Shown here in pieces: positions 20,450-57,376 of a DNA stretch of 64,000 nucleotides. The position numbers and the translations under genes are program-made. Positions within the stretch are counted from its first letter, which is position 1, and every line of letters starts with the position of its first letter. Source of the DNA: Syntrophothermus sp. (lineage in GTDB: Bacteria; Bacillota; UBA5301; JAMCQP01); the NCBI GenBank assembly GCA_050260975.1, contig JBLNCV010000166.1, positions 830 to 64,829 of the forward strand, read 5' to 3'. The notes under the pieces are model-generated. The model saw only the letters and a list, made by a program, of their open reading frames with translations. It did no database searches and was not told the DNA's origin.

Positions 20450-21880
20450 TTAGAAGATCTGCGCCGCTGCGGCAGCCAGCTTTAGCAGTTGCCCCGGGAG
20501 GATACCGAAGACCAGGATACCGGCCACCGTCAGCACGATTGCCAGTTTGGCCGCCCCTCCCACACGCAGGGGGGCGTCGCTTGCCGGCGGATCAATATAC
20601 ATGGCCTTGGCCACCATGAGATAGTAATATGTGGAGATCACACTGGTGATGGTGCCCACCAGCGCCAGCCAGATATACCCCTGTTCCACCGCCGCGGCAA
20701 ACAGGGAGAACTTCCCGACGAATCCCGCCAGCGGGGGAATGCTGCCAAGGGAGAGCAGTGCCACCAGCATCGTCGCCGCCAGCAAGGGATTGCGCCTGCT
20801 CAACCCGGCATAATCCTTGATCTCGTCGCTGCCGGCCAGCTTACCGTAAATAATGGCCACGATAAAGGCGCCCAGGTTGGACACCACATACAAGAACGAG
20901 TAGAAGATGATGGCCGCCACACCGGCGGTGTTGATGGCCACAAAACCCACCAGCAGATACCCGGCGTGGGCGATGCTGGAGTAAGCCAGCATCCTTTTGA
21001 TATTGGTCTGGGGAATGGCCACCACGTTGCCGACAATCATGGTAATCGCGGAAAGAACCGCCAAAAGCGCCGTCCACTCGGCCCTGGCCGTGGCAAAACT
21101 CAACATCATCAACCTGACCAGCACCGCAAGTCCCGCCGCCTTGGAAGCCACCGCGAGGTAAGCGGTAACCGGCGTGGGCGCAGCCTCATATACATCCGGA
21201 GACCACATGTGGAAAGGCACCACCGCGATCTTGAAGCCGAAACCGGCCAGGATGAAGATGACACCGATCAGCAACAATGGTTGCAGCGGCTGGCCCGCCA
21301 GAGCCGCCGTAATGCCGGCCAGGTGCGTCGTGGCGGTCATGCCGTATACCAGGCTCATGCCGTAGAGCAAGAGCGCCGATGACAACCCGCCGTAAAGGAG
21401 GTATTTCAAGCCGCCCTCGGTGGACTTGACATCTCCCCTGAGATATGCCGTCAGGATAAAGAAGGAGATGGTGGTCAACTCCAGGGAGACAAAGATGGTC
21501 ACCAGATCCACCGCGGAAACCATCAGCATCATACCGGCGGTAGCCGACAGCAAGATGCTGTAAAATTCGGCCTGATATTCCAGCAGTTCCGAGACATACT
21601 CGAAGGAGGAGAGGACTACCAGGATCGCCCCAATTATGAACATCTCCTTGAAGGCGATCGCAAATCCGTCCACCCGAAACGCTTCATACAAGAAGGTTTC
21701 ATTGGTGCCCCACAGGTTTGCGGCAGCCAACCCGGCGCCAATCAGGCCGATCACGGTGATCCAGCCCGCCGTCTTACTGGGCAAGCGGCGTACCATGAGA
21801 TGCAGCAAGACCAGGAGCAACGCAACGCCCGTGACGATCAATTCCGGCGACAACGCGTTCAGGATACGGGACAATTCCAT
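20450..21880 (-). CDS. nuoN: NADH-quinone oxidoreductase subunit N
   Basis: 476 aa, 14-TM antiporter-like subunit, last gene of the nuo cluster. Confidence 0.9.
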   Translation of the reverse strand: MELSRILNALSPELIVTGVALLLVLLHLMVRRLPSKTAGWITVIGLIGAGLAAANLWGTNETFLYEAFRVDGFAIAFKEMFIIGAILVVLSSFEYVSELLEYQAEFYSILLSATAGMMLMVSAVDLVTIFVSLELTTISFFILTAYLRGDVKSTEGGLKYLLYGGLSSALLLYGMSLVYGMTATTHLAGITAALAGQPLQPLLLIGVIFILAGFGFKIAVVPFHMWSPDVYEAAPTPVTAYLAVASKAAGLAVLVRLMMLSFATARAEWTALLAVLSAITMIVGNVVAIPQTNIKRMLAYSSIAHAGYLLVGFVAINTAGVAAIIFYSFLYVVSNLGAFIVAIIYGKLAGSDEIKDYAGLSRRNPLLAATMLVALLSLGSIPPLAGFVGKFSLFAAAVEQGYIWLALVGTITSVISTYYYLMVAKAMYIDPPASDAPLRVGGAAKLAIVLTVAGILVFGILPGQLLKLAAAAAQIF

Positions 21881-23349
21881 TACAGGACACCCCCAATCTT
21901 AGCCACCAGCGGCGTCACGCTGGTATTGATCAGGTTCAACAGCATGCTTGGGAAGAAACCGAAGAACAGAAGCACAAATACCAGGAGGTACAGCGGCACA
22001 AGATCCACGGTTTTTGCATCCGTGAGCCCGTCATATTGAGCTTTCCTCGGACCGAAGAAGACGTTCTGCACGGCCCGCAGGACATATATTGCGGTGATCA
22101 CGATACCCGAGATGGCGATGATCGCCACCAGCTTGTTGATGGAGAAGTAGCCCACAAAGACCAGCAACTCGGCCACAAAACCACTCAAGCCCGGCAATCC
22201 CAGGGAGGTCATACCGGCGATTACGAAGCTCGCGGCGATGATTGGCATTTGATGCGCCAGGCCACCGAGATCCGGAATGTGCCTGGTATGGGTCTTGTTA
22301 TATACCAACCCCACCAGCGCAAAGAAGAGACCGGTCATGATGCCGTGCGAGAACATCTGCATCACCGCCCCGTTTAAGCCGATGACGTTAAAGGAGGCAA
22401 TCCCCAAGAGCACATAACCCATATGGCTCGTGCTGGAGTAACCGATGATATACTTGAAGTCTTTTTGGGCCGTAGCCACAAACGCGCCGTAGACCACGTT
22501 GACCAGGCAAAGCCCGGCGATAATCGGGGCCCACAGATGCGCGCCCTCCGGGAAGAGGTTTAAGGCCACCCGGATGATACCGTAAGCGCCCAGCTTCATC
22601 AGCACACCCGCATGGAGCATGCTGACTGCGGTCGGCGCCGCCACGTGGCCGTCAGGCGACCAGGTGTGGAAGGGCCACATCGGCACCAGGAAGGCAAAGC
22701 CGAAGAACAGGAACGGGAAGACGAACTTTTGAAACTCCGGCGTGTACTTGATGTTTTGCAACGCCACCAGGTCAAAGGTCCGCAATCCGCTATTGAAGTA
22801 CAGGATCAGCATGCCCACCAGCAAGAAGGCGCTGCCCATCAAGAGGTAGAGGGTCAGCTTCATTGCGGCGTACTCTTTCCGGGTGCTTCCCCAGACGCCG
22901 ATGAGCAGATACATCGGGATGACCGCCAGTTCGTAGAACATAAAGAACAGGAACAGGTCAAAGGACATGAACACTCCGAAGACGCCGGTCACCAGCGTCA
23001 GGAGGAAGATGAAGAATTCCTTCTGCCTGTTCTCCTGCCGCCAGGAAGCAAAGACCCCGGCGAAGATCACAAAAGCCGTAAGCAACACCATGGCGATGCT
23101 CATTCCGTCCACGCCAAGATGGTAACTGATGCCGAAATAATCGATCCAGGGAATCTGCTGCACAAACTGCAATCCGGCTTTGGCCTTGTCATAGGCAAAG
23201 AGCAGATAAACCGCCAACGCCAGGGAGACGAAGGTGGATGCGGCGGCAACAACCCGGATCGCCGTGGCCCGCTTTTCTGGAATGAGAAGGATGAGCAAGA
23301 CGCCTACCGCCGGAGCAAAGATGATCGTGGAGAGAATCGGGAAACTCAT
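21880..23349 (-). CDS. nuoM: NADH-quinone oxidoreductase subunit M
   Basis: 489 aa antiporter-like subunit; 1-nt overlap with nuoN. Confidence 0.9.
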   Translation of the reverse strand: MSFPILSTIIFAPAVGVLLILLIPEKRATAIRVVAAASTFVSLALAVYLLFAYDKAKAGLQFVQQIPWIDYFGISYHLGVDGMSIAMVLLTAFVIFAGVFASWRQENRQKEFFIFLLTLVTGVFGVFMSFDLFLFFMFYELAVIPMYLLIGVWGSTRKEYAAMKLTLYLLMGSAFLLVGMLILYFNSGLRTFDLVALQNIKYTPEFQKFVFPFLFFGFAFLVPMWPFHTWSPDGHVAAPTAVSMLHAGVLMKLGAYGIIRVALNLFPEGAHLWAPIIAGLCLVNVVYGAFVATAQKDFKYIIGYSSTSHMGYVLLGIASFNVIGLNGAVMQMFSHGIMTGLFFALVGLVYNKTHTRHIPDLGGLAHQMPIIAASFVIAGMTSLGLPGLSGFVAELLVFVGYFSINKLVAIIAISGIVITAIYVLRAVQNVFFGPRKAQYDGLTDAKTVDLVPLYLLVFVLLFFGFFPSMLLNLINTSVTPLVAKIGGVL

Positions 23350-25301
23350 CGCGCACCTCCCAGAATGGCCATGAATGTCGGGTTATTCCAGGCCAGGATC
23401 AAAATGATCACCACAACCGCCCCGAAGAAGACCATGGCGTAGGTCTGCACCTGGCCGGTATGGGCCCTCCGCAGAACCCCGCCGAGCCAGCCCGTGGTAA
23501 AGGCTGAACCGTTTACGGCACCGTCCACCATGTTGCGATCCACCCAGTTGAGCACCGCGGCGACGCCGTCGTAGATCTTCCTCTCCAACCAGCTGTAGAG
23601 TTCATCGATGTAATACTTGTTCTTCAACAAGGTGTGCACCGGACCCAATGCACGAACCAGCGCATCCTGCTGGGAAGTGCGTCGCGCGTACAGAAGCCAT
23701 GCCGTTCCAATACCCAGCAAGGCCAGCACCGTGGACGAGAGAGCGATCCCCAGGTTGATTCCAGCTCCTTCATGGCCCTCGCCAAACTTCACAAAGGAAC
23801 CGAACCCGTGTTCAACCGCCGGCGAACCCCACAAACCCGCAAAGACCGCGAGAAACGCCAGGATCATCAGGGGGATGGTCATGACCAGGGGTGATTCGTG
23901 CACCGCGCCATGGCCATGGCCATGACCATCCGAAAACATGGTCAGATTCACATGATCCCCGGCGCTTTCGCTGGCCGCCGCCTTGCCGAAGAAGACCACA
24001 AACACAAGCCGGAACATATAGAAAGCGGTGAGGAAGGCCACGAACATGGCCGTAAAGAAGAGGATCGGCGAATTCCCCGCCTGCCAGTAGTTGTAGGCCG
24101 CCAGCAGGATCTCATCCTTGCTCCAGAAGCCGGACAGCGGATAGATACCGGCGAGGGACAGGGAGGCGATAATCATCGTGATCGCCGTAATCTTCATGGG
24201 CTTGTACAGCCCGCCCATCTCCCAGATGTCCTGCTTATGATGGAAACTGTAGATGACGCTGCCGGCCGCCAGGAAGAGCAGCGCCTTGAAGAAGGCGTGC
24301 GTCATCAGGTGGAAGACACCCGCCGTATAGCCGCCCACACCCAGGGACATGATCATGTAGCCCAACTGGCTCAAGGTGGAGTAGGCCAGAATCCGTTTGA
24401 TATCGTTTTGCGCCACCGCGATGGTTGCCGCAAACAGGGCTGTAAATCCACCGATGTAGGCCACCACCGTCAGCGGGTCAGCCGCCGCGGCAAACAGGAA
24501 GTACATCCGTGCCACCAGGAAGACGCCCGCGGCAACCATGGTCGCCGCATGGATCAGGGCGCTCACCGGAGTCGGGCCTTCCATCGCATCGGGCAGCCAG
24601 ACATGCAACGGGAACTGCGCCGACTTGCCAACCGCACCGCTGAAGATGAGCAGCGCCGTGGTGGAAAGCAGCGCCACCGATACGCCCGGCTGGGCGATAG
24701 CTTTACCCAGTTCGCCGAAGTTAAAGGTCCCGAAGACCGCAAAGAGCACCAGCACGCCGATCAGGAATCCAAAGTCCCCAACCCGGGTGGTAACAAAGGC
24801 CTTCTTCGCCGCATCGGCGGCCTCCTTCTTGTGATACCAGAAACCGATCAAGAGGTACGAGCACAGTCCCACGAGTTCGTAGAAGATATACAGCTGCAAC
24901 AGGTTATTGGCCAGTACCAGTCCCAGCATGGATGCCGTAAAGAGCGAGAGGTACGAGAAGTACCTGCTATACCCTGGATCCTCCCCCATATAACCGATCG
25001 AATACACCTGCACCAAAAGGCTTACCAGGGTGACGACGATCAGCATTACGGCGTTCAGCGGGTCGATCAGGGTCCCCATCTCAGCCACAAACTTGCCGAT
25101 CCCGATCCACTTGACCGCATTCTCCGTCACCACCGGGTTGGCGAGTTGCTCAACCAGGATGCCGACGGAGATCACGAACGAAGCCAGAATGGCAAGAATG
25201 GAGACGGTCGAACTCAACTGCCTGAACTTTTTTGTCAGAAAGCTAATGATCAGGAATGCCGCAAAGGGCGATACCGGAATTAGCCAGGCATACTGCGTCA
25301 T
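23346..25301 (-). CDS. nuoL: NADH-quinone oxidoreductase subunit L
   Basis: 651 aa antiporter-like subunit with the long C-terminal amphipathic helix region. Confidence 0.9.
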   Translation of the reverse strand: MTQYAWLIPVSPFAAFLIISFLTKKFRQLSSTVSILAILASFVISVGILVEQLANPVVTENAVKWIGIGKFVAEMGTLIDPLNAVMLIVVTLVSLLVQVYSIGYMGEDPGYSRYFSYLSLFTASMLGLVLANNLLQLYIFYELVGLCSYLLIGFWYHKKEAADAAKKAFVTTRVGDFGFLIGVLVLFAVFGTFNFGELGKAIAQPGVSVALLSTTALLIFSGAVGKSAQFPLHVWLPDAMEGPTPVSALIHAATMVAAGVFLVARMYFLFAAAADPLTVVAYIGGFTALFAATIAVAQNDIKRILAYSTLSQLGYMIMSLGVGGYTAGVFHLMTHAFFKALLFLAAGSVIYSFHHKQDIWEMGGLYKPMKITAITMIIASLSLAGIYPLSGFWSKDEILLAAYNYWQAGNSPILFFTAMFVAFLTAFYMFRLVFVVFFGKAAASESAGDHVNLTMFSDGHGHGHGAVHESPLVMTIPLMILAFLAVFAGLWGSPAVEHGFGSFVKFGEGHEGAGINLGIALSSTVLALLGIGTAWLLYARRTSQQDALVRALGPVHTLLKNKYYIDELYSWLERKIYDGVAAVLNWVDRNMVDGAVNGSAFTTGWLGGVLRRAHTGQVQTYAMVFFGAVVVIILILAWNNPTFMAILGGAR

Positions 25302-25333
25302 GTTCCTTCCGCCTTCCTTCCCTTAGATCTGCA

Positions 25334-25642
25334 CTACCATTTGAGCCAGTCGAAATCTTCGAGGTTGACCGAATCTCTGTGCCGGTTGATCGCAATAATC
25401 AGGGCAAGCCCCACGGCAACTTCCGCTGCGGCTACCGCAATCGAGAAGAGCGCAAAGATCTGCCCCATCATCGCGGCCGGCGTCAGGAACCTGGAGAACG
25501 CCACCAGGTTGATATTTACCGCATTTAGCATCAACTCGATGGACATCAGGGCCACGACCGCGTTACGCTTCGCTAAAGCACCATACAGGCCGATGGCAAA
25601 GAGGATCGCGCCCAGGATCAGGTAGTAAGAAAGTGGAGTCAT
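25334..25642 (-). CDS. nuoK: NADH-quinone oxidoreductase subunit K
   Basis: 102 aa, 3-TM subunit with a conserved Glu. Confidence 0.9.
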   Translation of the reverse strand: MTPLSYYLILGAILFAIGLYGALAKRNAVVALMSIELMLNAVNINLVAFSRFLTPAAMMGQIFALFSIAVAAAEVAVGLALIIAINRHRDSVNLEDFDWLKW

Positions 25643-26154
25643 TACGACTTCTTCACCTCCTTGGCAATCACGATGGCGCCAATCATGGCCACCAGAAGAA
25701 GTACCGCCGCAATCTCAAACGGCAGGACATAGTCGGTCATGAAAAGCTTGCCGATGGTCGGAACCGTCGTCTCCGGCATGGCCACGGCGGATTGCGTCCA
25801 AACCGTCCGGCCGGTCACCAGCCCGACCAAAAGCAGCGTCGCGATGGATACCAGTCCTGCCAGCCACTTTTTGTTGTTGGAGAGGTTGGTGAGAGCCATG
25901 TCTCCCCGCTGGGTCAGCATTACCGCAAAGACAATCATTACGGCGATGGCGCCCACATACAGCAAGATCTGAATGGCCGCCAGAAACTCGGCGTGAAGTA
26001 GCACGTAGATTCCGGCCACGCCCACGAAGGAGAAGGCCATGGAGATCGCCGCATGGAAGACGTTCCGGAACGTTACAACTCCAAGGGCCGAAAGCCCCGT
26101 GAAGATAGCCAGGATTATAAAAGCTACCAATGAACCGGCTCCCTGCATCTTCAC
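25642..26154 (-). CDS. nuoJ: NADH-quinone oxidoreductase subunit J
   Basis: 170 aa 5-TM subunit; 1-nt overlap with nuoK. Confidence 0.85.
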   Translation of the reverse strand: MKMQGAGSLVAFIILAIFTGLSALGVVTFRNVFHAAISMAFSFVGVAGIYVLLHAEFLAAIQILLYVGAIAVMIVFAVMLTQRGDMALTNLSNNKKWLAGLVSIATLLLVGLVTGRTVWTQSAVAMPETTVPTIGKLFMTDYVLPFEIAAVLLLVAMIGAIVIAKEVKKS

Positions 26155-26573
26155 CGACCTCCTTTCGGCTGAATTGCCGGGGTACCCACATATTTATCCC
26201 CGGTGGAGAGGTCCTTCAGGTAACCCCGCCGGCTGTAATCCGCCAGTTCAAATTCATGCGAGTGCGTGAGGCTCTTGGTCGGGCAGGCCTCCACGCAGAG
26301 CCCGCAAAACAGGCAGTACTGCAAATCCACCGTGTAACCCGAAAGCTTCCTCTTGTTGTTCTCATCCTTAACCGAACTCACCTTGATGACCCCGTTGGGG
26401 CAAGCTTGCTCGCACAAGCCGCAAGCGATACAGGTAGCCGGGTCAAGCGCCAGCGCGCCCCGGAACCGATCCTGGATTATGGCCTTCTCCCAAGGGTATC
26501 GCCGGGTGACTGGCTTTTTGAAAAAGGTCTTGAAGGTAACCCCCAGGCCCTTCAGCAAACCGGTGCCATACAT
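26151..26573 (-). CDS. nuoI: NADH-quinone oxidoreductase subunit I (2x[4Fe-4S] ferredoxin)
   Basis: Two CxxCxxCxxxCP motifs (CIACGLCEQACP and CLFCGLCVEACP). Confidence 0.9.
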   Translation of the reverse strand: MYGTGLLKGLGVTFKTFFKKPVTRRYPWEKAIIQDRFRGALALDPATCIACGLCEQACPNGVIKVSSVKDENNKRKLSGYTVDLQYCLFCGLCVEACPTKSLTHSHEFELADYSRRGYLKDLSTGDKYVGTPAIQPKGGR

Positions 26574-26577
26574 CTGT

Positions 26578-27624
26578 TCAACCTCCTATCCCCCGCAGGA
26601 GAATGACTTCGCCTGCCGTGATGAACACGTTCAAGAGCGAGAGCGGCAACAGGACCTTCCAGCTGAACGCCATTACCTGGTCGATCCTGAACCGCACCCA
26701 GGTGGCGCGCACCCAGAGCAGAACCCAGGCCATCACCAGGGTCTTGATCAGAAACCAGACAAACCCGGGCAGCACCGGCCCTTGCCAGCCTCCCAGGAAC
26801 AAGGTGGTCATCAGGGCCGCAAGCGCAAAGAGGTTGGCGTACTCGGACAGATAGAAGAGAGCAAACCTCATGCCGCTGTATTCGATATTAAAACCGGCGA
26901 TAATCTCGGACTCGCCTTCCGGCAGGTCAAAGGGCTTGCTGTTAACCTCCGCCAGCCCGGCAAAAAAGTAGATCAGGAAAGCCAGCGGCTGGTAGACGAT
27001 AAACCAGACCTTGCTCTGCTGCCTGACGATTTCACCTGTGCTGAGCGTGCCGCTCAACATCACCACGCCGAGGAGCGACAGCACCAATGGCACTTCATAA
27101 CTGACAATCTGCGCCACGGAGCGCATCCCGCCCACGAGCGCGTATTTGTTGTTGGAACCCCACCCGGATGAGAGAATTCCCAGCGAAGTTAGAGAAGCAA
27201 TCGACACAAAGTACAGGAGCCCGATGTTTACGTCACTCAGGATTACTCCCGGCGCAAAGGGAAGCACCGCATAGAGCATCCCGGCTGCAAAGAAGACGAT
27301 CATCGGTCCCAGCCGGAACATCTTTCTATCCGCGTTGGCGGGAATAATATCTTCCTTTTGCAACACTTTCAGCGCATCGGCCACGGTCTGCAACAACCCC
27401 AGCGGCCCGGTCACGTTCGGGCCCATCCGGTGCTGCATGTGGCCCATGACCTTCCGTTCCATGTAGATAATCCACAGAACCGCCAGAGCGAGGAAGATTA
27501 GTACGGCCAGCCCGATGATCACCCCGTAGATGATCACCGGCCAGGACCCTGATACGCCGATGCCGCGCAACAGTGTATCCATCCAGTTAAATATCACGTT
27601 CATCTTCTCGCCTACCCTCCACAA
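26578..27624 (-). CDS. nuoH: NADH-quinone oxidoreductase subunit H
   Basis: 348 aa 8-TM NuoH/ND1 homologue. Confidence 0.9.
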   Translation of the reverse strand: MWRVGEKMNVIFNWMDTLLRGIGVSGSWPVIIYGVIIGLAVLIFLALAVLWIIYMERKVMGHMQHRMGPNVTGPLGLLQTVADALKVLQKEDIIPANADRKMFRLGPMIVFFAAGMLYAVLPFAPGVILSDVNIGLLYFVSIASLTSLGILSSGWGSNNKYALVGGMRSVAQIVSYEVPLVLSLLGVVMLSGTLSTGEIVRQQSKVWFIVYQPLAFLIYFFAGLAEVNSKPFDLPEGESEIIAGFNIEYSGMRFALFYLSEYANLFALAALMTTLFLGGWQGPVLPGFVWFLIKTLVMAWVLLWVRATWVRFRIDQVMAFSWKVLLPLSLLNVFITAGEVILLRGIGG

Positions 27625-27661
27625 TTAAGATGCGAATTCGCCGTAACAGACAACCGGCATC

Positions 27662-28792
27662 CTATGCGTCAATCTCGCCCATGACGACGTCAATGGAGGC
27701 AAAGATCGCGATCAGGTCCGCAATCTTCCATCCTTTAATCATCTCCGGCAAGGCGGAAACGTTGACAAACGACGGGCGCCGGGCATGGAAGCGGTAGGGT
27801 TTGGTGGAGCCATCGCTCACCAGGTAGAACCCAAGATCCCCCTTCGGGGCTTCTACATGGGCATATGCCTCTCCCGCCGGCGGTTTGAAGACCTTGGGCA
27901 CCTTGGCCATAATCTCTCCCTGTGGGAGGTCCTTCATAGCCTGCTCAAGGATCTTCAGGCTCTCGCGCATCTCCAGAATGCGCATCATATAGCGATCGAA
28001 GGTGTCGCCTTTCTGCCCGAGCGGCACGTCAAACTTGAACCGGTCGTAAACCAGATACGGATCGGCCTTGCGAATATCGTAATTGACCCCGGAAGCCCGC
28101 AGGGTGGGTCCGGAAACCCCCCAGCTGATGGCATCCTCCGCCGAAAAAAGTCCGACCCCTTTGGTCCTGGCCAAAAAGATCTCGTTTCCGGTGAGCAACG
28201 TCTCATACTCGTCGATCCGCGCCGGCATTATATCAATAAATTCCTTGAGCTTTTTCAGGAAGCCTTCCGGCAGATCCTGGGAGACGCCGCCGATCCGCAT
28301 GTAGTTGTAGGTCTGCCGCGCCCCGGAAACCATCTCAAACATGTCGTTAATCAGTTCCCGGTCGCGGAAGCAGAACAACCATGGCGTGTAAGCGCCCAGA
28401 TCGTTGCTGAGGGAACCCACAAAGACCAGGTGGCTGGAGATCCTCTGCAACTCAGCCATAATCACCCGGAGGTATTGGGCGCGCTCGGGCGCCTCAATGC
28501 CGGCAAGCCTCTCCGCCGCAAGAACATAGGCCAGGTTGTTGGACATGGAGGCCAAATAGTCCAGCCGGTCCGTGTAAGGAATGCACTGCTGGTAGGTCCT
28601 GGCCTCCGCCAGCTTTTCGATGCCCCGGTGCAGGTAACCGACTACCGGAGTGGCATCGGTGATCGTTTCGCCGTCCAGCTTGACAATCACCCGGAAGACC
28701 CCGTGCATGCTGGGATGCTGCGGACCAAAGTTGATCTGGAGCTCCTCCGTGCGCACCACGGGTTCTACCTTTACGGTTGCCTGTGTGCTCAT
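27662..28792 (-). CDS. nuoD: NADH-quinone oxidoreductase subunit D (49 kDa)
   Basis: 376 aa, NuoD/NiFe-hydrogenase large subunit fold; not fused to NuoC. Confidence 0.9.
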   Translation of the reverse strand: MSTQATVKVEPVVRTEELQINFGPQHPSMHGVFRVIVKLDGETITDATPVVGYLHRGIEKLAEARTYQQCIPYTDRLDYLASMSNNLAYVLAAERLAGIEAPERAQYLRVIMAELQRISSHLVFVGSLSNDLGAYTPWLFCFRDRELINDMFEMVSGARQTYNYMRIGGVSQDLPEGFLKKLKEFIDIMPARIDEYETLLTGNEIFLARTKGVGLFSAEDAISWGVSGPTLRASGVNYDIRKADPYLVYDRFKFDVPLGQKGDTFDRYMMRILEMRESLKILEQAMKDLPQGEIMAKVPKVFKPPAGEAYAHVEAPKGDLGFYLVSDGSTKPYRFHARRPSFVNVSALPEMIKGWKIADLIAIFASIDVVMGEIDA

Positions 28793-29271
28793 CTCACCGC
28801 CCTCCTTTCGCTGCGATCGGGCAACTTGAAGTCCTTTCGCAAGGGGTATCCCTCAAACCCCTCGGCAGTCAGGATCCGTTCCAGATAGGGATGTCCGGAA
28901 AAATCAATGCCGAACATGTCGTAAACTTCGCGTTCCAGCCAGTTGGCGCCCTTCCATACCGGGGTCGCGGAAGCCACCACCGGCTTCTGCTTGTCAAGGT
29001 TTACCTTGACCACCACCGATTGCTGGAGCGCGATGGAGTACAGTTGGTAGACCACGGTAAAGTGCTCCGGATAATCCACCGCCGTCAGATCACCGAGGTA
29101 ATCCATTTTAAACCCTTCAGCATCCCTCAAAAAGCGAAGAACATCCAGAAGATCCGGCGGGTTGACGGTGATCACAAGCTGTTCTTTATCAGTGGCCAGG
29201 GTTACTTTTCCGGCAAACCGCGCTTGCAATGCGGAGCTTTTCTGCTCGATATCCTTTGTTTGCCTCATCAT
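28789..29271 (-). CDS. nuoC: NADH-quinone oxidoreductase subunit C (30 kDa)
   Basis: Start moved to the ATGATGA overlap with the nuoB stop ([11 protein letters not shown]...); the longer ORF in the track overlaps nuoB. Confidence 0.85.
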
Positions 29272-29777
29272 CTTCTGTCCACCACCGATTCCTTCATGAT
29301 CTTTTCCCGGAGCTTCATCAGCCCGTCTATATACGCCTCCGGCCGGGGCGGGCATCCCGGGATATAGACGTCCACGGGAACAATCGTGTCTCCTCCGGGC
29401 ACCACAGCGTAGGAATCCGCGAACGGCCCGCCGGAGATGGCACAGCTTCCCATGGCGATTACATATTTGGGTTCCGCCATCTGGTCATAAAGCTTGCGAA
29501 TAAGCGGCGCCATCTTGTTGGTGATCGTGCCTGAGAGCACCATCACATCGGCCTGACGCGGCGAAGGCCGCATAAAGATCCCGAAGCGCTCCAGATCATT
29601 CCTGGCAGCATGGGTGTGCATCATCTCAATCGCACAACAGGCCAGGCCGAACCCCAGCGGCCACATGGAACTTTTTCGCGCCCAGTTCAAAAGCGAATCC
29701 AGGGTGGTAACCAGCACGTTTCTTTTGACCTGTTCCTCTATCGAGGCATCAGGCGTTGAAGTCTTGTTTACTTCCAT
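29268..29777 (-). CDS. nuoB: NADH-quinone oxidoreductase subunit B (20 kDa, N2 cluster)
   Basis: [12 protein letters not shown] plus a GSCA..GG cysteine pattern. Start at MEVNKT with GGAAGGAAGGGG upstream. Confidence 0.85.
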
Positions 29778-30130
29778 TCCAATGCCCCTTCCTTCCAGGC
29801 ATATCCCAGCCCAACGAGCAGGATAAGGATAAAGATTACTGCCTCCACCAACGCAAACAGCCCTAGCTTCTGGAATGCTACGGCCCATGGGTAGAGAAAT
29901 GCGGTCTCGACGTCGAAGACCACGAAGATGAGTGCATACAGGTAGTAACTAACCTTGAAACGAACCCAGGTCGTCCCCACCGTCTCAAGCCCGCACTCAT
30001 AAGTGGACAGCTTCGCCGCGTTGGGTTTTTTTGGCCTCAGGAGCCACGCCACAATCAACGCCGCCATCGCAAACGCGACGGTCACCAGGGCGTAGATCCC
30101 AATGGTCAGGTACTGCTCACTAAACCCCAC
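29768..30130 (-). CDS. nuoA: NADH-quinone oxidoreductase subunit A
   Basis: 121 aa from GTG 30130 ([15 protein letters not shown]...) with AAAGGGGG upstream. The longer ORF in the track extends into the leader. Confidence 0.8.
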
Positions 30131-30503
30131 TTGTCTAACCCCCTTTGAATTTCCATATGGACTTGGAAAATGGATTGGAAATCCGGCCATCCGAAAAATT
30201 TGAGCTTGGACACCCAAAAATAAAATCCGAGATTGGCTATTTGCACGCATTTTCACAAGCGTTCACAGTAAAACACAAAAAACGGGCCTGCAAGCCTCCC
30301 CATCTTTTGACGCCCGAGAACCCATTCCCTTTCTTCCGCACGCAACACCACCGGCAGTCCTTAACTGGACCTGGAAAACCCCACTAATAACCGGCAATCC
30401 CATAATTGATGCGACACAGGATTTAATTCTCTACAAATCGGGAATATCCTCTTTAAGATCGAGTCGTCCCCCGGAAAATAATTTTGGCCAAACTTCCGTC
30501 CTC

Positions 30504-30959: not shown

Positions 30960-32325
<1,366 letters not shown>

Positions 32326-32483
32326 TTAACAGAAAAGCCCAATCTCGTCAAGAATCTGAATCTAATTTGCGCGTAAAAAAATATACTTTATGCGACAAAA
32401 GTTAAGAGGATTTTCGCCATACTGCGCGAATACATGTAGGTGCCAAATGTTTCTCTCCTGGCGAAGCGGAGGAGGCTGGTTGT

Positions 32484-32766
32484 GAAACGGGATGGCTGGG
32501 ATTACGCCCGCTATGCAAACTTCGCCTTTTCGTTCGGGTTTACGTTGGTAATCAGCCTTTTGCTCGGTTATTTCGGGGGCAGTTTTCTTGACCGGAAACT
32601 GCATACTTCTCCCTTTTTAATGTTGGCCGGGATCCTGGTTGCCATCGTTTTGAGTTTCAAGAGCCTTCTGGCTGAAGTTGCCGTTTTGGACAAGGCTGAG
32701 GCCGACGCCAGGAAAGCTCGAAAAAAGTGTTCTTCCCGTAACAGCCACGATGACAATGAAAAATGA
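32484..32766 (+). CDS. ATP synthase-associated small membrane protein (AtpZ/AtpI-like)
   Basis: Two-TM protein (FAFSFGFTLVISLLLGYFGGSFLDRKL...) immediately upstream of atpI. GTG start with GGAGGAGG 7 nt upstream; the ORF track begins 44 nt earlier. Confidence 0.5.
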
Positions 32767-33142
32767 TCAATCCAAGAACGCTCCATTGCCGAAACTTGCC
32801 AGGCTGGCCAGCATTGGCCTTTTTCTTGTTCTAGCGACAATCTGGTTCAATGTGCGCCTGGCAATGGGCATCCTGGCCGGAACACCAGTAGGGATCTTTA
32901 ATTATTGGCTTATAACAGGTGCTGCCGAAGATAAATTATTGGGCTCCGCCAGAAGAAGCCAGGCTGTTTTTTTGCGACGCGCGCTCTACCGCTGGGTGAT
33001 CGACTTTGGCGCCCTGCTAGCCGCCAGCACCATCGGGGAGAGTTTTCTGATCGGCGTGGTAATCGGCCTGGCGTTACAGGTTTTTGCCCATATGATCGAT
33101 GCCCTGTCGTTGTCTTTCGCTCATAACCCACAGAAGAGGTGA
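32750..33142 (+). CDS. atpI: ATP synthase protein I
   Basis: 130 aa, 4-TM protein directly upstream of atpB. Start at the ATG overlapping the end of the previous gene. Confidence 0.55.
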   Translation: MTMKNDQSKNAPLPKLARLASIGLFLVLATIWFNVRLAMGILAGTPVGIFNYWLITGAAEDKLLGSARRSQAVFLRRALYRWVIDFGALLAASTIGESFLIGVVIGLALQVFAHMIDALSLSFAHNPQKR

Positions 33143-33147
33143 TTTTT

Positions 33148-33843
33148 GTGGAAGAAAAGATGCACGAGATTGGCAAGGTTACCGAACATATAGCTGGGAC
33201 AACGGTCTTTCATATCGGGTCGATCCCGGTGTCTTCCACAGTGGTTCATACCTGGTATATAATGGCCTTTTTGATCATTGCGGCCTTTATACTCACCCGA
33301 AGGTTGCGTTCCGGTGCGCCCCGTGGCGCGCAGAACCTCCTGGAGATGTATGTCGAGTTCATATATGGTTTGCTTGAACCGGCCCTTGGAAAAGAAGGCC
33401 GCCGTTTCTTGCCGCTGGTGGGAACCCTGTTTATTTTCATTCTCGCTTTGAACTGGTCCGGAGTGTTCATTCCCAATTTCGTGCCGCCCACCACCGACTT
33501 GAGCACCACAGCGGCTTTTGCCGTAGCCACCATCATCACGGTGCACGCGCTGGCTATCCGCGAAAAAGGGCTGAAGCACTATGTGGCGCATTACTTTCAG
33601 CCGTTCTGGTTCCTCTTTCCGCTCAACATCATCGAAGAACTGGTCAGGCCCTTCTCCCTGGCTGTCCGTCTTTTTGGCAACATATTTGGCGGAAAGATGG
33701 TCTTTTCCATCATCTTTATTCTGGTGCCTTTCCTGGCGCCTACGCCGATCATGTTGCTTGAAGTTCTGATGGGCGCCATTCAAGCTTTTGTCTTCTCCTT
33801 GCTTACCGTCACCTATCTCAGTGGACTGACCAAAGGACACTAG
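33148..33843 (+). CDS. atpB: F-type ATP synthase Fo subunit a
   Basis: 5-TM subunit with the conserved Arg-containing helix (LAVRLFGNIFGG). The start is among GTG 33139, GTG 33148 and ATG 33160. Confidence 0.85.
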   Translation: MEEKMHEIGKVTEHIAGTTVFHIGSIPVSSTVVHTWYIMAFLIIAAFILTRRLRSGAPRGAQNLLEMYVEFIYGLLEPALGKEGRRFLPLVGTLFIFILALNWSGVFIPNFVPPTTDLSTTAAFAVATIITVHALAIREKGLKHYVAHYFQPFWFLFPLNIIEELVRPFSLAVRLFGNIFGGKMVFSIIFILVPFLAPTPIMLLEVLMGAIQAFVFSLLTVTYLSGLTKGH

Positions 33844-33909
33844 CGAGTGGTGCAAATAACCACCCGCTAGTTGGCCAGTTTGACGCCTTTGATGAAGGGG
33901 GTGAAACGA

Positions 33910-34137
33910 ATGCAATACATTGGCCTGATCGCCGTCGGTATTGCCATGGGTCTGGCGGCGTTGGGTTCTGCTCTTGGGCAGGGCCGGGCTGCAGAAAGCG
34001 CTGCGGCGGCAATCTCTCGCCAGCCTGAAGTTTCCGGCGATATCCGTACAACGTTGATCATCGCCCTGGCATTTATGGAGGCACTTACTCTGTTCACTTT
34101 CGTGCTGGCAATCCTGATGCTGGGAAAGATCTCCTAA
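33910..34137 (+). CDS. atpE: F-type ATP synthase Fo subunit c
   Basis: 75-aa hairpin proteolipid with GxGxGxG ([10 protein letters not shown]) and a conserved Glu (FMEALTLF). GGGGGTGA RBS. Confidence 0.85.
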
Positions 34138-34248
34138 AGATCTTCATAGATCTTTGGAGCCTATTCCGAGCAGGTAACTTCGGCGAATAAGAGGAAGCCG
34201 GCAGGTTCCTCTTATTCGCTATCCAGCTTTTGTAAGGGAGGCCGTCCC

Positions 34249-34737
34249 GTGCAGATCCAACTCTGGACGCTATTATGGCAGATCCTTAACCTGGCGGTCG
34301 TGATCGCTCTTTTAACGGCAATCGCCTACAAGCCGGTCTCCAAAATTCTTCGCGACCGGGAAGAACACGTGGAAAAGACCCTCGCCCAGGCAGCTTCGTC
34401 CCAAAAGGAGGCGGAAGCCCTGCTGGCCCGATATCAGCAACAGATTCAACATGCCAAGCAGGAGGCACAGGAAATCGTCGACCGCGCCACCAAAGTGGGT
34501 GAGCAGATGCGGCAGGAGATTATACAAAACGCCGAAAACGAAGCGTCACGGACCATGGCTAAAGCCAAAGCCGAAATAAGTGCTGAAAAAGATAAGGCTC
34601 TATCCCAAATTCGTGATGAAGTGGCCAACCTGGCTGTATTGGCCGCTGGAAAGATTATTGGGCGTTCCATTACCGCAGCGGATCATGAAAAAATGGTCAA
34701 GGATTTTGTCGCCGAACTGGATAAAGTTCAGCATTAG
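34249..34737 (+). CDS. atpF: F-type ATP synthase Fo subunit b
   Basis: One N-terminal TM helix followed by a long charged coiled coil. GTG start with AGGGAGG upstream. Confidence 0.8.
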   Translation: MQIQLWTLLWQILNLAVVIALLTAIAYKPVSKILRDREEHVEKTLAQAASSQKEAEALLARYQQQIQHAKQEAQEIVDRATKVGEQMRQEIIQNAENEASRTMAKAKAEISAEKDKALSQIRDEVANLAVLAAGKIIGRSITAADHEKMVKDFVAELDKVQH

Positions 34738-35073
34738 TACCATTTTTTTCCTCCTTAACCATAATTTTGAGCAAAAAATTTTTGTTCGGGCAGGTTTAAT
34801 AGAAAAAGATCGGGGCATTATAACTACCGAGGTCGACAAAGTTCAAATGGGATTCAGGCTCGACCCTGCAATGGGGTCAGCAACGCGGCCAACTTCCTCT
34901 TGGAAGAGCCTTCGTTCGCAGGTTCACGGCTGAACTTGCCTGCTTCTCAAACCTCTTGTCGGCCTCCTTTTTCGTGTTCCCCCCTTGAAGATCAAAAGTA
35001 TAAAGAAGTAGGGGGCCCCCTTCAAATGAAGAGCCCCCGTGCAAATCTCAGAGATCACTACAAGTATAAGACC

Positions 35074-35367
35074 TTAACTGGTGGATTGTACGGCGCCCTG
35101 GCCGATACGACTGCCGGCCACGGTAACCAAAACTGTCTCCGTCAGAACATCTGAATAGGTATAAGACAGCCTGTTTATCGTGCTCTGTTTGCCATTGACC
35201 CGCACCACAAAGATGTTTGGATACGTTTGCTCCAAAATCCCTTCCGCTTCGATGACCCGCTTGCGTCCCCTATTGGCTTTTACCGTAATAGGTTGTCCGA
35301 CAAAGCTACGAAGGTCCGCCCGGATCTGGCCCAAAACATTCCCCTTGCCAACTGCAACCTTTGCCAA
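35074..35367 (-). CDS. veg: Veg protein (DUF1021, biofilm-stimulating)
   Basis: MAKVAVGKGNVLGQIRADLRSFVGQPITVKANRGRKRVIEAEGILEQTYPNIFVVRVNGKQSTINRLSYTYSDVLTETV matches B. subtilis Veg along its length. Confidence 0.75.
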   Translation of the reverse strand: MAKVAVGKGNVLGQIRADLRSFVGQPITVKANRGRKRVIEAEGILEQTYPNIFVVRVNGKQSTINRLSYTYSDVLTETVLVTVAGSRIGQGAVQSTS

Positions 35368-35412: not shown

Positions 35413-35481
35413 ATTATATCACAATTGGCGCTATTTGTCAACATAACTTATTATTATATCTGGCAAAAGCCGGTTTGTCAA
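35413..35481 (-). promoter_or_regulatory. Two tandem consensus sigma-A promoters (each TTGACA-17-TATAAT) upstream of veg
   Basis: Proximal: -35 is the rc of 35436-35441 and -10 the rc of 35413-35418. Distal: -35 is the rc of 35476-35481 and -10 the rc of 35453-35458. Confidence 0.55.
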
Positions 35482-53298: not shown

Positions 53299-54567
53299 CT
53301 ATTCTTCAACCCGGATAATCTCCGCCCCGATCTTCCGGAGCTTCTCTTCAATCCGGTCGTAACCGCGGTCCAGATGATGAACCCCATGGACATGCGTCTC
53401 TCCTTTGGCCGCCAACCCCGCAAAGACCAGCGCCACTCCGGCCCGGATGTCGGGCGTCTCCACCGGGGCGCCGGTGAGTTCAGCCTGGCCCAGAATGATG
53501 GCGGTGGCGCCTTCAATGCGGATGTTGGCACCCATCCGGCGTAATTCATCCACATACGCGAAGCGGTCGTCAAAGACGGATTCACGGACGAGGCTCACGC
53601 CTTCCGCGGTGGTCATCAAGGCCACAAACGGCGCCTGATAGTCTGTGGCAAACCCCGGATAAGGCCGGGTCTCCACGTCCACGCTGTGCAATCGCCCGCA
53701 GCAGGAGATCTCCAGGGCCGTGGGGCTCTCGTGCACTTCCACACCAGCTTCCTGAAGTTTGATGGTCAGCGCCCTGACATGCTCCGAAACCACATTCTGG
53801 ACCTTGACCCGTCCTTTGGTGACAGCCGCGCCAATCATGTAGGTTCCGGCCTCCAACCGATCCGGAATCACTTCATGCCTGGTGCCGTGAAGTTCCTGGA
53901 CTCCTTCGACGGTAATCACGTCCGTGCCAGCCCCTTTGATCCTGGCGCCCATCTTGTTGAGCAGCATGGCCAGATCCACAATCTCGGGCTCCCGGGCGGC
54001 GTTTTCAAGGATGGTGATCCCGTCGGCCAGGCAAGCAGCCAGCATGAGGTTTACGGTGGTGCCGAAGCTGGCCCTGTTGACGTAAAATTTGGCGCCACAA
54101 AGCCTCCCGAATAGGTTCCCCACCCGGGCGACCATATAACCGTATTCGACATTCACATCGGCCCCCAACGCCTGAAACCCCTTGAGGTGGAAGTCCACCG
54201 GCCTGGTCCCAAACGGATCCCCACCTGGGAAGGGGACCTTGGCCTTTCCCAACCGCCCCAATAAAAGGCCGGCCACATAAAAAGAGGCTCGTAGCTTTCG
54301 TACAAGCTCATAAGGGGCCTGTTCGTTTTCCAGATTTGTGCCGTCCACAAGCAGAGAGCCGTTTTCCACTTCCTCCACCCGGACTCCGAGGGAACGCAGG
54401 ATGGCTATTTGTGCGGGAATGTCCGTATAGTTCGGTATGTTTTCAAGGATGGTTTCGCCTTTTCCCAGAGCAGCTCCTACCATTAAAGCCAGCGCGCTGT
54501 TTTTGGAGCCGGTAACGGAAATTTCCCCTTCCAGCCGTCGCCCGCCCTTCACAATCAGCTTTGCCAA
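53299..54567 (-). CDS. murA: UDP-N-acetylglucosamine 1-carboxyvinyltransferase
   Basis: [28 protein letters not shown]-terminus and full-length EPT-fold similarity. Confidence 0.9.
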
Positions 54568-54585: not shown

Positions 54586-54999
54586 CTATCCCCGGTTGTC
54601 AAATAACCGTCTTTCCGCATAATCATCGGCTTTCAGCGGTTCCCGCCAAAGCCTTTTCCACGCGCCCACCGCCTGGAACACACTGTAAGTCCACCAAAAA
54701 GCCAAGAAAATCCCGACAAAAGCGTACCGTAAAAATACCTGGTTTAAACGCCAGACATGGAAGGTCGTCCCGCCAAACGCCACGATTGCCGTGGCAAAGT
54801 AATTGGCGTAGAGCAAGCGCGCCCAGATGACGCCCGCCAGGGTCAACACCAGACTCAAAACCGTCCTGCGAACCACCATGCGCCGTATCTGCGCTGGTCT
54901 GCGCAGCCATGCATCAAACAAAGAGATCCCTCCCAATGGCAATTTCGTCCGGCCGGTGCTATTTTTTTCGTCGCAGGCGCCCATAACCTGACCGTACAA
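54586..54999 (-). CDS. Small membrane protein (possibly DUF1146/YwzB-like)
   Basis: Two or three TM helices. Its position next to murA mirrors ywzB in Bacillus. The real start is probably an internal Met (MVVRRTVLSL...). Confidence 0.35.
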   Translation of the reverse strand: MYGQVMGACDEKNSTGRTKLPLGGISLFDAWLRRPAQIRRMVVRRTVLSLVLTLAGVIWARLLYANYFATAIVAFGGTTFHVWRLNQVFLRYAFVGIFLAFWWTYSVFQAVGAWKRLWREPLKADDYAERRLFDNRG

Positions 55000-55941
55000 T
55001 CAATTAAAAAGCTCGCTCACCGACCCTTCGTCGTGAACCCTGGTGATTGCGGCCGCCACAAGGGGTGCGATGGAGAGTACCTTGATCTTCTCAAGTTTTT
55101 TATCCGGGGGTATAGGGATTGTATCGGTAACCACAACCTCCTTGATCGCCGGATGGCTTAAACGTTCCGCCACCTTCCCCGAAAAGACCGCGTGCGTGGC
55201 GCAGACATGAATCTCCGGCCTCGCGCCTTGATCAATGAGCGCCTTGACCCCTTCAACCAGCGTTCCCCCCGTGTCGATCATATCCTCAATAATAATGGGA
55301 ATCCGATCCTCCACATCGCCGATCACATGCGTCACTTCCGCTACATTATGCGCACGCCGCCGTTTGTACATCCCAACCAGAGGCAGATCCAGACGCGAAG
55401 CCAGCTTCTCCGCGGTCTTGGTCCCACCCGCATCCAGAGCCACCACCACTCCGTCCTTGAGCCCCTTGGCCCTGTAGTGCGCCGCTAAGATTGGCAAAGC
55501 CGTCAGGTGGTCCACCGGGATGTTGAAGAAGCCCTGGATCGCCGGGGCATGCAGATCCACGGTGATCACCCGGCTGACCCCCACGGTGGTGAGCAGATCC
55601 GCCACCATCCTGGCGGAAATGGGCTCCCGCGGAGCGACCTTCTTCTCCTGCCGCGCGTATCCATAGTGCGGTATCACGGCGTTGATGCGCCACGCCGAGG
55701 CTCGTTTCAGCGCGTCGACCATAATCATCAATTCCATAAGATTTTCGTTCACCGGCGGGGAAATGGTCTGCACCACAAAGACGTCGCACCCGCGCACCGT
55801 CTCTTCAAACCGCACATAAATCTCCCCCGACGCAAACCGCTCGATCCTCACCGCCCCAAGAGAGCTTCCCAATTCCTTTGCCACGCTATTTCCCAGCCCC
55901 GGGAAGGATGTCCCGGCGAAGATCTTCATCTCGCACTGCAT
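55000..55941 (-). CDS. prs: Ribose-phosphate pyrophosphokinase
   Basis: PRPP synthetase motifs (DLHA..QGFF, GGTKTAEKLA). Start at ATG 55941 with AGGAG upstream. Confidence 0.9.
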   Translation of the reverse strand: MQCEMKIFAGTSFPGLGNSVAKELGSSLGAVRIERFASGEIYVRFEETVRGCDVFVVQTISPPVNENLMELMIMVDALKRASAWRINAVIPHYGYARQEKKVAPREPISARMVADLLTTVGVSRVITVDLHAPAIQGFFNIPVDHLTALPILAAHYRAKGLKDGVVVALDAGGTKTAEKLASRLDLPLVGMYKRRRAHNVAEVTHVIGDVEDRIPIIIEDMIDTGGTLVEGVKALIDQGARPEIHVCATHAVFSGKVAERLSHPAIKEVVVTDTIPIPPDKKLEKIKVLSIAPLVAAAITRVHDEGSVSELFN

Positions 55942-56058
55942 TAACTCCTGGCCCCCCAAAAGAATCTTCTTTATCAAAAGCGAAAGGGCCGGCCTCAAAA
56001 AACCAGGCCTGCCTTCGGCCATCCAGTACAGTATTCTGCATGCAAGTACAAATTCCTG

Positions 56059-56667
56059 TCAAAGTCCTTCTTTAATCTTTTTCAGCCGGTGAACGCAATC
56101 CACCGCCACGCCCACCAGAGCCTCGGTATCCAAATATTCATTCGCGGCCGCATCAAACAGGATCGTCCCCGAGGGCGGAAACTCTTCGTCTCCCGCCCAG
56201 AGGATCAGGGTTAACGGGAGCCGGGGAAACACCGGAATGGTCGTTGCCACGTCACCCTTATCAAACTTTTCGCCGCCAATTGTCCGGGCAGCCTCAAGCA
56301 AAAGATGCGGCCTGGCGCCGAAAGCCCTGGCCAGCATCGCCACCGGCCCGCGGTTAAAGGCATCAAGGTAGGTATAGCCTCCCCACAATTCCTTGAAGGA
56401 GATCCACCGCCCGGCCAACGGCTTGCCGCTTGCCGTGGCGAGGTAGAGATAAAGAAGAATCTGATCATCCAGCGACACCGGCCCCGTGCCCCCTGCTTTT
56501 TCAACCCGGCCGGAAGGAAAGTGCACCAGGTATTTTTCGTCAAGGTAGGGGACAAGAAAATACTCTTCCTCCTGGTTAAAAGCTACACCCGCCCGACGGG
56601 CCATCTCACCGGGGATCCCTGCACGCATCTTCTTCCTGGCGAACTCGCACGCCGCCTCGTAGGCCAT
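56059..56667 (-). CDS. Uncharacterized protein, paralog A of a tandem pair (possibly DUF3786-like)
   Basis: About 200 aa with a shared ISFKELWGG / GDEEFPPSGTILFD core, about 60% identical to the adjacent gene. Confidence 0.5.
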   Translation of the reverse strand: MAYEAACEFARKKMRAGIPGEMARRAGVAFNQEEEYFLVPYLDEKYLVHFPSGRVEKAGGTGPVSLDDQILLYLYLATASGKPLAGRWISFKELWGGYTYLDAFNRGPVAMLARAFGARPHLLLEAARTIGGEKFDKGDVATTIPVFPRLPLTLILWAGDEEFPPSGTILFDAAANEYLDTEALVGVAVDCVHRLKKIKEGL

Positions 56668-56731
56668 CCATCCCCACTCCTCCCCAAGAATGCGTCTTAC
56701 GATCACCCCACATATTCCGTTGTTACTATAT

Positions 56732-57376
56732 TCAGGAGCCGGCCTTGATCTTCATCAACCGGTAGACACAAGCTGCAGTGATGTAAACCAGATCCTCGGT
56801 GGGGAGATATTCATTGGCGGTGGCATCGAACAAGATTGTCCCGGAAGGCGGAAATTCCTCGTCTCCTCCCCAGATCACCAGAGTCACCGGCACCCGGGGC
56901 AACACGGTGATGGTCGCCGCCACATCACCCTGACCGGCCTCCTTGCCGCCGAGTAACCCGGCGGCCTCCAGAAGCAGAGACGGGCTGGCACCGAAAGCCT
57001 TCAGCATTGGCGCCAGCGCCCGGCGGTTGAAGGGGTCAATATAGATCTGTCCACCCCATAGTTCCTTGAAGGAGATCTGTCTCCCGCCCAGAGGCGTACC
57101 GCTTGCGGTGGTCAGGTAGTGGAGCAGGGGAATCTGCTCCGCCGGCGGCACCGGCCCTGTGCCATCTGCTTTTTCAACCGCGCCGGAAGGAAAATAGACC
57201 CGGTACTCTTCCCCGAGGTAAGGAACCATAAAGAAGCCCTCTTCCTGATCCGGACTTGCATCCGGGCGGAAGATCCCGTCACGGTTAAAGATCACCCCGG
57301 CCCGCCGGGCCATCTCCTCGGGTATGCCCTCGCCAAGGCTTTTCCTGGCCAGTTCGAGCGCTGCGTCGTAGCCCAT
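56732..57376 (-). CDS. Uncharacterized protein, paralog B of a tandem pair (possibly DUF3786-like)
   Basis: Same architecture and motifs as paralog A. Confidence 0.5.
   Translation of the reverse strand: MGYDAALELARKSLGEGIPEEMARRAGVIFNRDGIFRPDASPDQEEGFFMVPYLGEEYRVYFPSGAVEKADGTGPVPPAEQIPLLHYLTTASGTPLGGRQISFKELWGGQIYIDPFNRRALAPMLKAFGASPSLLLEAAGLLGGKEAGQGDVAATITVLPRVPVTLVIWGGDEEFPPSGTILFDATANEYLPTEDLVYITAACVYRLMKIKAGS

Follow-up and report, generated by a model that had tools for sequence, protein, structure and literature searches.

How does an ATP synthase operon come to end after the genes of its Fo sector, and from where would the matching F1 genes be expressed? These questions are raised by a 64,000-nucleotide (nt) stretch of DNA (referred to here as the window; positions 830 to 64,829 of contig JBLNCV010000166.1, GenBank assembly GCA_050260975.1) from the NCBI metagenome-assembled genome (MAG) “Syntrophothermus sp.” The Firmicutes are the textbook case of an unsplit atp locus, and housing all eight ATP synthase genes in a single operon is believed to contribute to fixing the ratios of the subunits. 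Five successive plus-strand open reading frames (ORFs) in the window, at 32482 to 34737, were identified using Pfam as atpZ, atpI, atpB, atpE, and atpF; they are followed by a gap of 336 bp and then by veg, and the atp operon thus stops after atpF, as a first-pass annotation of the window had claimed. With a probability of roughly three in four, we take this arrangement to be an old, clade-wide split between the genes for subunits b and delta of the F-type ATP synthase in an uncultured Bacillota clade related to the Moorellaceae. Under this reading, atpZ-atpI-atpB-atpE-atpF would be transcribed as a unit of its own, flanked by purA and veg, with F1 supplied from another locus.

The same annotation had found no F1 gene anywhere in the 64 kb, and both searches made here agree with it. 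The Walker-A signature of the alpha and beta subunits was not present in any frame of the window, and tblastn with the AtpH, AtpA, AtpG, AtpD, and AtpC proteins of Thermanaeromonas returned no match in it at an E value of ≤1e-3. Searches of the clade loci using tblastn with F1 proteins were likewise without a match in any locus. An F1 gene set lying immediately outside the window had also been considered. However, the window spans nearly the whole of its 64,978-nt source contig (the AtpB encoded in the window is identical to that of the “Syntrophothermus sp.” MAG); therefore, there is no F1 set just outside the window on that contig. The locus also does not have the layout of an N-type ATPase (atpD-C-Q-R-B-E-F-A-G), as purA lies upstream and veg downstream, and no alpha, beta, gamma, or epsilon gene was found in the 64 kb. 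Among the matches listed, the a subunits closest to the AtpB of the window were ordinary F-type ones.

More than 10 independent assemblies share the order purA, atpZ-I-B-E-F, veg. Contigs of the same species carrying this junction were identified in Logan run SRR24035587 and in NCBI metagenome GCA_041890195.1, while a sister species (approximately 85% AtpB identity) carries it in GCA_040960095.1, SRR25508613/16/17, SRR10267473, and the MAG JAMCQP01 (“Bacillota bacterium FK_Sedi_A_Bin.38”). A search with Veg led to two deeper lineages that are also split. The first, L050 (MAG GCA_029961005.1), shares 60% AtpB identity with the window by BLASTP (59% in the alignment) and 56% Veg identity, and the second (loci L052 to L055) shares 52 to 53% AtpB identity. 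Both keep a wider synteny, with TPR, GAF-GGDEF, DnaB_2, DnaB, ksgA, RNase H-like, and veg genes on one side of atpF-E-B-I-Z and purA on the other, and purA is the upstream neighbor of the Fo unit in every clade member (L001, L003 to L006, L008, L050, and L052 to L055). Comparison with relatives, proposed in the first-pass annotation as a way to learn whether the split is lineage-wide, thus showed that the sister species and two deep lineages share it. Within the deepest split lineage, the subunit a encoded by L052 (11262 to 12474, minus strand) is 259 amino acids long and has an N-terminal extension of approximately 29 residues; in the same locus a single 132-amino-acid ORF with a weak match to PF09527 precedes subunit a, replacing separate atpZ and atpI genes.

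The four other lineages nearest by AtpB (61 to 64% identity), namely, a Thermanaeromonas MAG, a Moorellaceae MAG, a Logan contig, and a Bacillota MAG, all carry atpZ-I-B-E-F-H-A-G-D-C. In a neighbor-joining tree of concatenated subunits a, c, and b (460 columns), the bipartition between split and full-operon lineages was recovered in 200 of 200 bootstrap replicates, with the longer branches on the split-operon side. Judged from these sequences, the split is older than the separation of lineages that now share only approximately 50 to 60% identity in their Fo proteins. The complete operons of Thermanaeromonas and the Moorellaceae encode the closest Fo proteins (a, 61 to 64%; c, 68 to 70%; b, 45 to 53% identity) and have the same order of the first five genes and the same essential residues, but in them atpF shares an overlap with atpH, and the unit continues into the F1 genes, whereas in the split clade purA and veg flank the unit. 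The full operons are bordered by glyA, dCMP deaminase, MazG, and Epimerase_2 genes upstream and by SpoIIT and murA genes downstream; tblastn searches of the window and of the related loci detected none of these ancestral neighbor genes. By the gene order, one inversion is ruled out as the origin of the split: purA adjoins the 5′ end of the block and veg its 3′ end, a flanking pattern that requires insertion of a block or two events. The simplest history, we infer, would be that the Fo block was relocated once, in the ancestor of the clade.

The starts of the Fo genes (32482, 32756, 33148, 33910, and 34249) were taken from gene calls on public contigs with identical proteins, and the ratios of nonsynonymous to synonymous substitution rates (dN/dS) were computed between the window and the sister species (L003 and L008; dS of approximately 0.5 to 1.2). 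All five genes lie on the plus strand. The first, at 32482 to 32766, encodes an AtpZ-like small membrane protein (AtpZ/ATPase_gene1; PF09527, E = 5e-12; dN/dS of 0.16 to 0.22), called at 94 amino acids in the identical contig L001, although its longest ORF begins at 32440. It is followed by atpI (32756 to 33142; PF03899, E = 4e-6; 128 amino acids in L001; dN/dS of 0.12), atpB for Fo subunit a (33148 to 33843; PF00119, E = 7e-52; dN/dS of 0.08), atpE for the 75-amino-acid Fo subunit c (33910 to 34137; PF00137; dN/dS of 0.01), and atpF for Fo subunit b (34249 to 34737; PF00430, E = 1e-33; dN/dS of 0.08), the final atp gene of the unit. The dN/dS range of the Fo genes, 0.01 to 0.22, is shared with purA, veg, and ksgA, and AtpE has 99 to 100% amino acid identity to its counterparts in L003 and L008.

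The residues expected of a working Fo are in place. Subunit a keeps the essential Arg in RLFGN of the penultimate helix, its LAVRLFGNIFGG aligning with the RLFGN of Thermanaeromonas and the Moorellaceae, and in the alignment subunit c retains the RQPE polar loop and the ion-binding Glu of helix 2 in FMEALTLF. PF00430 covers residues 7 to 137 of subunit b, which aligns over its full length, C-terminal region included, with b subunits from full operons. As the Glu of subunit c is not followed by Ser or Thr, coupling is probably to H+ and not to Na+, and the cluster probably encodes a functional, proton-coupled Fo sector. An Fo without F1 is an open proton leak and is expected to be selected against; together with the long purifying selection on Fo, this argues that a matching F1 would be made from another locus. 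It is therefore reasonable to infer that atpHAGDC are expressed separately from the unit described here.

Other explanations of an Fo-only cluster were weighed against this reading. Two search results count against it: when the Thermanaeromonas beta subunit was used as a query, no protein from the source MAG was among the 120 best matches listed, and three beta candidates (P0206, P0215, and P0174) were found to belong to ordinary full operons of other lineages. F1 has thus not been located, and its placement elsewhere follows from the selection seen on Fo. One alternative is that the cluster is an extra or duplicated Fo cassette, providing, for example, an alternative stator and rotor, with a complete atpIBEFHAGDC or N-type operon elsewhere in the genome. 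Duplicated atp loci and single subunits have been documented in many bacteria (PMC4154653), but the Fo proteins of the window are the closest relatives of those in the full operons of the Moorellaceae and Thermanaeromonas, as expected of the orthologous copy. The 120 best matches listed include a single AtpB of the source MAG, and the cluster is kept in all three deep lineages, with strong purifying selection as measured in the window clade; an additional cassette is therefore considered unlikely.

The cluster could instead be a remnant, left after F1 was lost in an organism relying on a V/A-type ATPase or on substrate-level phosphorylation, with Fo either decaying or kept as, e.g., a regulated proton channel. 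The failure to find an F1 gene for the clade (in the window, in the clade loci, and among the 120 best beta matches listed) would fit this view; however, that result reflects the scope of the search, the 120 best matches listed, and is not evidence of absence. The low dN/dS values in all five genes argue against a remnant, as do the intact catalytic Arg and Glu, the full alignment of the C-terminal part of subunit b with b from full operons, retention of the arrangement across lineages at approximately 50% protein identity, and the established expectation that Fo alone, as a proton leak, should be selected against, so that a remnant is very unlikely. A chimeric join at 34740 to 35070 hiding the F1 genes, a misassembly that the first-pass annotation had wished to see excluded, is hardly credible: the junction recurs in many independent assemblies, the identical junction and gap sequence being present in contigs from at least seven independent sequencing runs or projects. 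In addition, the alignable parts of the gap, namely, the segment after the atpF stop codon and the RNA element (described below), match base for base across species, with divergence in the part proximal to veg. The clade-wide split between b and delta is thus preferred over each of these alternatives.

What, then, occupies the gap between atpF and veg (34738 to 35073)? It had been described as 336 bp of AT-rich noncoding DNA and suggested to be the scar of a rearrangement. The length and the noncoding character hold, but the gap is AT-rich only in relative terms, with 46% G+C compared to 57% for the window, and its parts differ (the first 67 nt have 30%, the conserved element 53%, and the remainder 47%). 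The scar interpretation is contradicted, because nowhere in the locus is DNA better conserved than in the middle 170 nt of the gap, which hold a covarying RNA on the atp strand. Similarly, the GGGGGCCCCC palindrome, which had been noted within the gap, is the stem of the intrinsic terminator of veg, on the minus strand at 35038 to 35011. The gap is therefore probably functional DNA: its atp strand carries a conserved RNA, and the convergent veg has its terminator in the gap as well.

The structured RNA element, of approximately 170 nt (34812 to 34983, plus strand), was recognized from its conservation, its fold, a homolog, and covariation. In the alignment of the atpF-veg spacers of the two species, the block at 34805 to 34975 shares 92% nucleotide identity with L003 and L008, compared to 75 to 82% for the surrounding coding DNA (except atpE, at 89%) and 44 to 66% for other intergenic DNA. 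The sole length difference within the block is an 11-nt insertion, UGAGUUUCUCA, which is self-complementary and falls in a predicted hairpin loop. A small protein encoded in the element was ruled out, since a single ORF spans the element and this indel shifts its reading frame; the element is therefore noncoding. The plus strand is predicted to fold at −69.8 kcal/mol (z = −4.2; z = −2.0 for the minus strand), with an outer stem P0, a stem P1, short stems P2 and P3, and three hairpins arranged around a four-way junction. P1 consists of 11 bp (34829 to 34839 paired with 34956 to 34966) and is followed by a U-rich tract at 34967 to 34973. The identical plus-strand architecture was predicted in all four variants and was 3 to 7 kcal/mol more stable than that of the minus strand. 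A minus-strand RNA was disfavored by this weaker fold in all four variants and by several conserved G-U pairs that would become A-C mismatches.

Using a covariance model built from these variants, a homolog was identified in L050 (34 bits; E = 5e-9) on the atp strand, beginning 29 nt past the atpF stop codon, and this sequence folded alone gave the same set of helices. In the model-fitted alignment, 97% of cells pair, and 12 double-sided pair changes were counted, compared to 2.5 ± 1.3 in shuffles and 0 to 3 when the pairing partners were slid. These figures are tempered by two observations: the covariation comes from only five distinct sequences in an alignment fitted to the model, and nearly all of the double changes stem from the single lineage L050. 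The L052 lineage is without the RNA, its 124-nt gap having a canonical terminator, AAAAAACAGGCCAAGCGCCTGTTTTTTTT, directly after atpF. As it is absent from the L052 lineage, the RNA is not required for the split.

The element could not be matched to a catalogued RNA family. No match over it was returned at the gathering threshold from the families of Rfam 15, with 6S, SRP, tmRNA, RNase P, and riboswitches among them, and at an E value of ≤10 only chance-level matches were obtained in the stretches searched (snoRNA/scaRNA and freshwater-2; 6.5 to 17.6 bits, compared to gathering thresholds of 50 to 68), none of which touched the element of the window, with one marginal match on the opposite strand in L050. 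ARAGORN identified no tRNA or tmRNA in the element, and neither nhmmer nor the covariance model found a second copy in the window or any copy in the outgroup loci fetched. A scan of metagenomes with AGCAACGCGGCC-N-CGTTCGCAGG gave 13 matches attributed to chance, located in G+C-rich coding DNA and not upheld by nhmmer, a scan of viral sequences for the element gave five chance matches, and a literature search for an RNA after atpF found no described counterpart. Literature searches for the accessions of the MAGs were likewise without a pertinent result.

With low confidence, we prefer to interpret the RNA as a structured 3′ end of the Fo transcript. The unit would be transcribed from the conserved purA-atpZ spacer; the RNA would terminate transcription and keep 3′ exonucleases off the mRNA, and, if released, it might persist as a stable small RNA. 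This interpretation is favored because a U-rich tract follows P1 in all three element-bearing types (CUUUUUC in the window, CUUUAUUAU in L003, and UCUUUUC in L050) and because a plain terminator occupies the same place in L052. P1 is not called in a terminator consensus scan, since it closes a 116-nt multibranch domain. Structured 3′ ends of operons and small RNAs derived from 3′ untranslated regions (UTRs) are known, for example, SdhX and CpxQ in enterobacteria. Like these, the element is a structured RNA that lies on the coding strand, immediately follows the last gene of an energy-metabolism unit, and has a stem and a U-rich end; unlike them, it is predicted to be a 138-nt four-way junction and not a simple hairpin, and it is not known to be related to them in sequence or family.

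A plausible though less likely alternative to a 3′ end would be an independent gene for a trans-acting small RNA, transcribed from a promoter of its own at the atpF stop codon, without connection to ATP synthase expression and only accidentally placed after atpF. A promoter-like TTAACA-17-CATAAT overlapping the atpF stop codon in L003, with CATAAT invariant in the window clade, speaks for such a gene and against our preferred interpretation, and the compact, closed element followed by U-rich sequence resembles many small RNAs. However, the candidate −35 hexamer is poor in the window (three of six positions), L050 has no promoter-like site and only approximately 29 nt between the atpF stop codon and the element, and the element was found only directly after atpF, as a single copy in the window. 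It is also conceivable, but quite improbable, that the RNA represents a new regulatory class tied to the split, acting in trans on, e.g., the unlinked F1 mRNA to balance Fo and F1 synthesis. If true, a trans-acting RNA would replace operon linkage in keeping the synthesis of the two sectors in step.

Two further noncoding regions belong to the Fo unit. The divergent spacer between purA and atpZ (32302 to 32481), the presumed location of the promoter and 5′ UTR of the unit, has 80 to 90% nucleotide identity to L003 and L008, similar to or above that of the surrounding coding DNA, and its conservation suggests that promoter or 5′ UTR elements have been kept. A promoter scan of this spacer gave only a weak consensus match, TTAACA-18-AAGAAT at 32326 to 32355. 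In the spacer between atpE and atpF, a perfect hairpin of 13 to 15 bp was predicted on the plus strand (GCGAAUAAGAGGAA...UUCCUCUUAUUCGC; 34183 to 34219). It is predicted alike in the window, L003, and L008, while the remaining spacer is only approximately 73% identical. The hairpin may act as a partial terminator or as a stabilizer favoring subunit c; in the latter case, the segment encoding subunit c may gain in relative stability or yield.

Upstream and divergent from the Fo unit, purA (adenylosuccinate synthetase; 30985 to 32301, minus strand; PF00709, E = 2e-186) is followed by three tRNA genes and an 11-gene nuo cluster (20450 to 30256, minus strand). Only the tRNA genes and purA separate this cluster from the Fo unit. 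The cluster is of the 11-subunit type, judged via Pfam annotation of the syntenic L003, with no NuoE/F/G-like genes seen in the part covered. On the other side, veg (35074 to 35367, minus strand; PF06257, E = 3e-28) is the convergent downstream neighbor. Beyond it, also convergent with atp, lie an RNase H-like gene, ksgA, and genes for a G5/3D protein, a radical-SAM protein, DnaB, and a DnaB_2 protein; Pfam thus bears out the earlier statement that the neighbors veg and ksgA are convergent with the atp genes. The intrinsic terminator of veg (35011 to 35038, minus strand) was identified in a terminator scan as a 10-bp stem with seven G-C pairs followed by TACTTCTTTA, and a differing but equivalent hairpin is present at the same place in L003 and L052. 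Upstream of veg are two tandem predicted sigma-70 promoters (35481 to 35453 and 35441 to 35413, minus strand), each matching TTGACA-17-TATAAT at 12 of 12 positions and one having an extended −10 TG; the region from 35413 to 35481 is 93 to 95% conserved between species.

The first-pass annotation had also pointed to murA and a ywzB-like gene, which in Bacillus follow atpC, as lying next to prs in the window. The positions of murA (53299 to 54567) and prs (55000 to 56022) are correct, but a ywzB-like identity was not confirmed for the ORF between them (54586 to 54999, minus strand), as no DUF1146 or other credible Pfam match was obtained at an E value of ≤1; it looks like a small membrane protein, with no assigned family. 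Because this assignment fails, the argument built on murA and ywzB is weak. Two tandem DUF3786 paralogs (215 and 214 amino acids) are located upstream of prs at 56059 to 57376 (minus strand).

A break between b and delta is itself a known arrangement. The layout in which b-c-a is separate from epsilon-beta-gamma-alpha-delta is the second commonest atp pattern and is dominant in the Alphaproteobacteria (PMC5709465); breaks between b and delta are known from the Alphaproteobacteria and Nitrospirae, while the Firmicutes locus was found unsplit (PMC4154653). The split in those groups (including Rhodospirillum rubrum, Rickettsia, and Methylobacterium) has the same junction, with the Fo order unchanged, and is inherited within clades (PMC5709465, PMC4154653). 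The split described here differs in being an independent event with one b gene, without a b′ duplicate, and with an atpZ-like gene first. It further differs in the structured RNA after atpF in two of the three lineages and in that the F1 partner locus has not been located. In short, the split between b and delta is a known arrangement that arose independently in a Bacillota clade, and the RNA element found with it matches no catalogued family.

A separate case was encountered in the Bacillota MAG AS23ysBPME_69 (L009; 9387 to 13953), in which atpZ-I-B-E-F-H is followed by an SNF2-family helicase gene, and genes for alpha and beta are lacking within 10 kb. This locus differs from the clade in that the break lies after atpH (delta), the neighbors are others, AtpB identity is 42%, and no RNA element was found with the covariance model. 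It is an independent event, and such breaks are therefore not unique in the Bacillota. In addition, seven Anaerolineae/Chloroflexota loci (L011 to L017) with an atpB homolog of 24 to 27% identity had no alpha/beta Walker-A signature in the fetched DNA (≤10 kb on each side), and their atp genes may also be split.

These findings bear on how genomes of this kind are read. In the annotation and metabolic reconstruction of MAGs, ATP synthase should not be scored as absent when only one half has been binned. The covarying RNA, not yet classified, is a candidate for study, whether it is a mere elaborate terminator or stabilizer or a regulator. The split itself has been stable while the Fo proteins diverged to approximately 50% identity, and it offers, besides the Alphaproteobacteria, a second, independent natural experiment on how the expression and assembly of Fo and F1 are coordinated without linkage.

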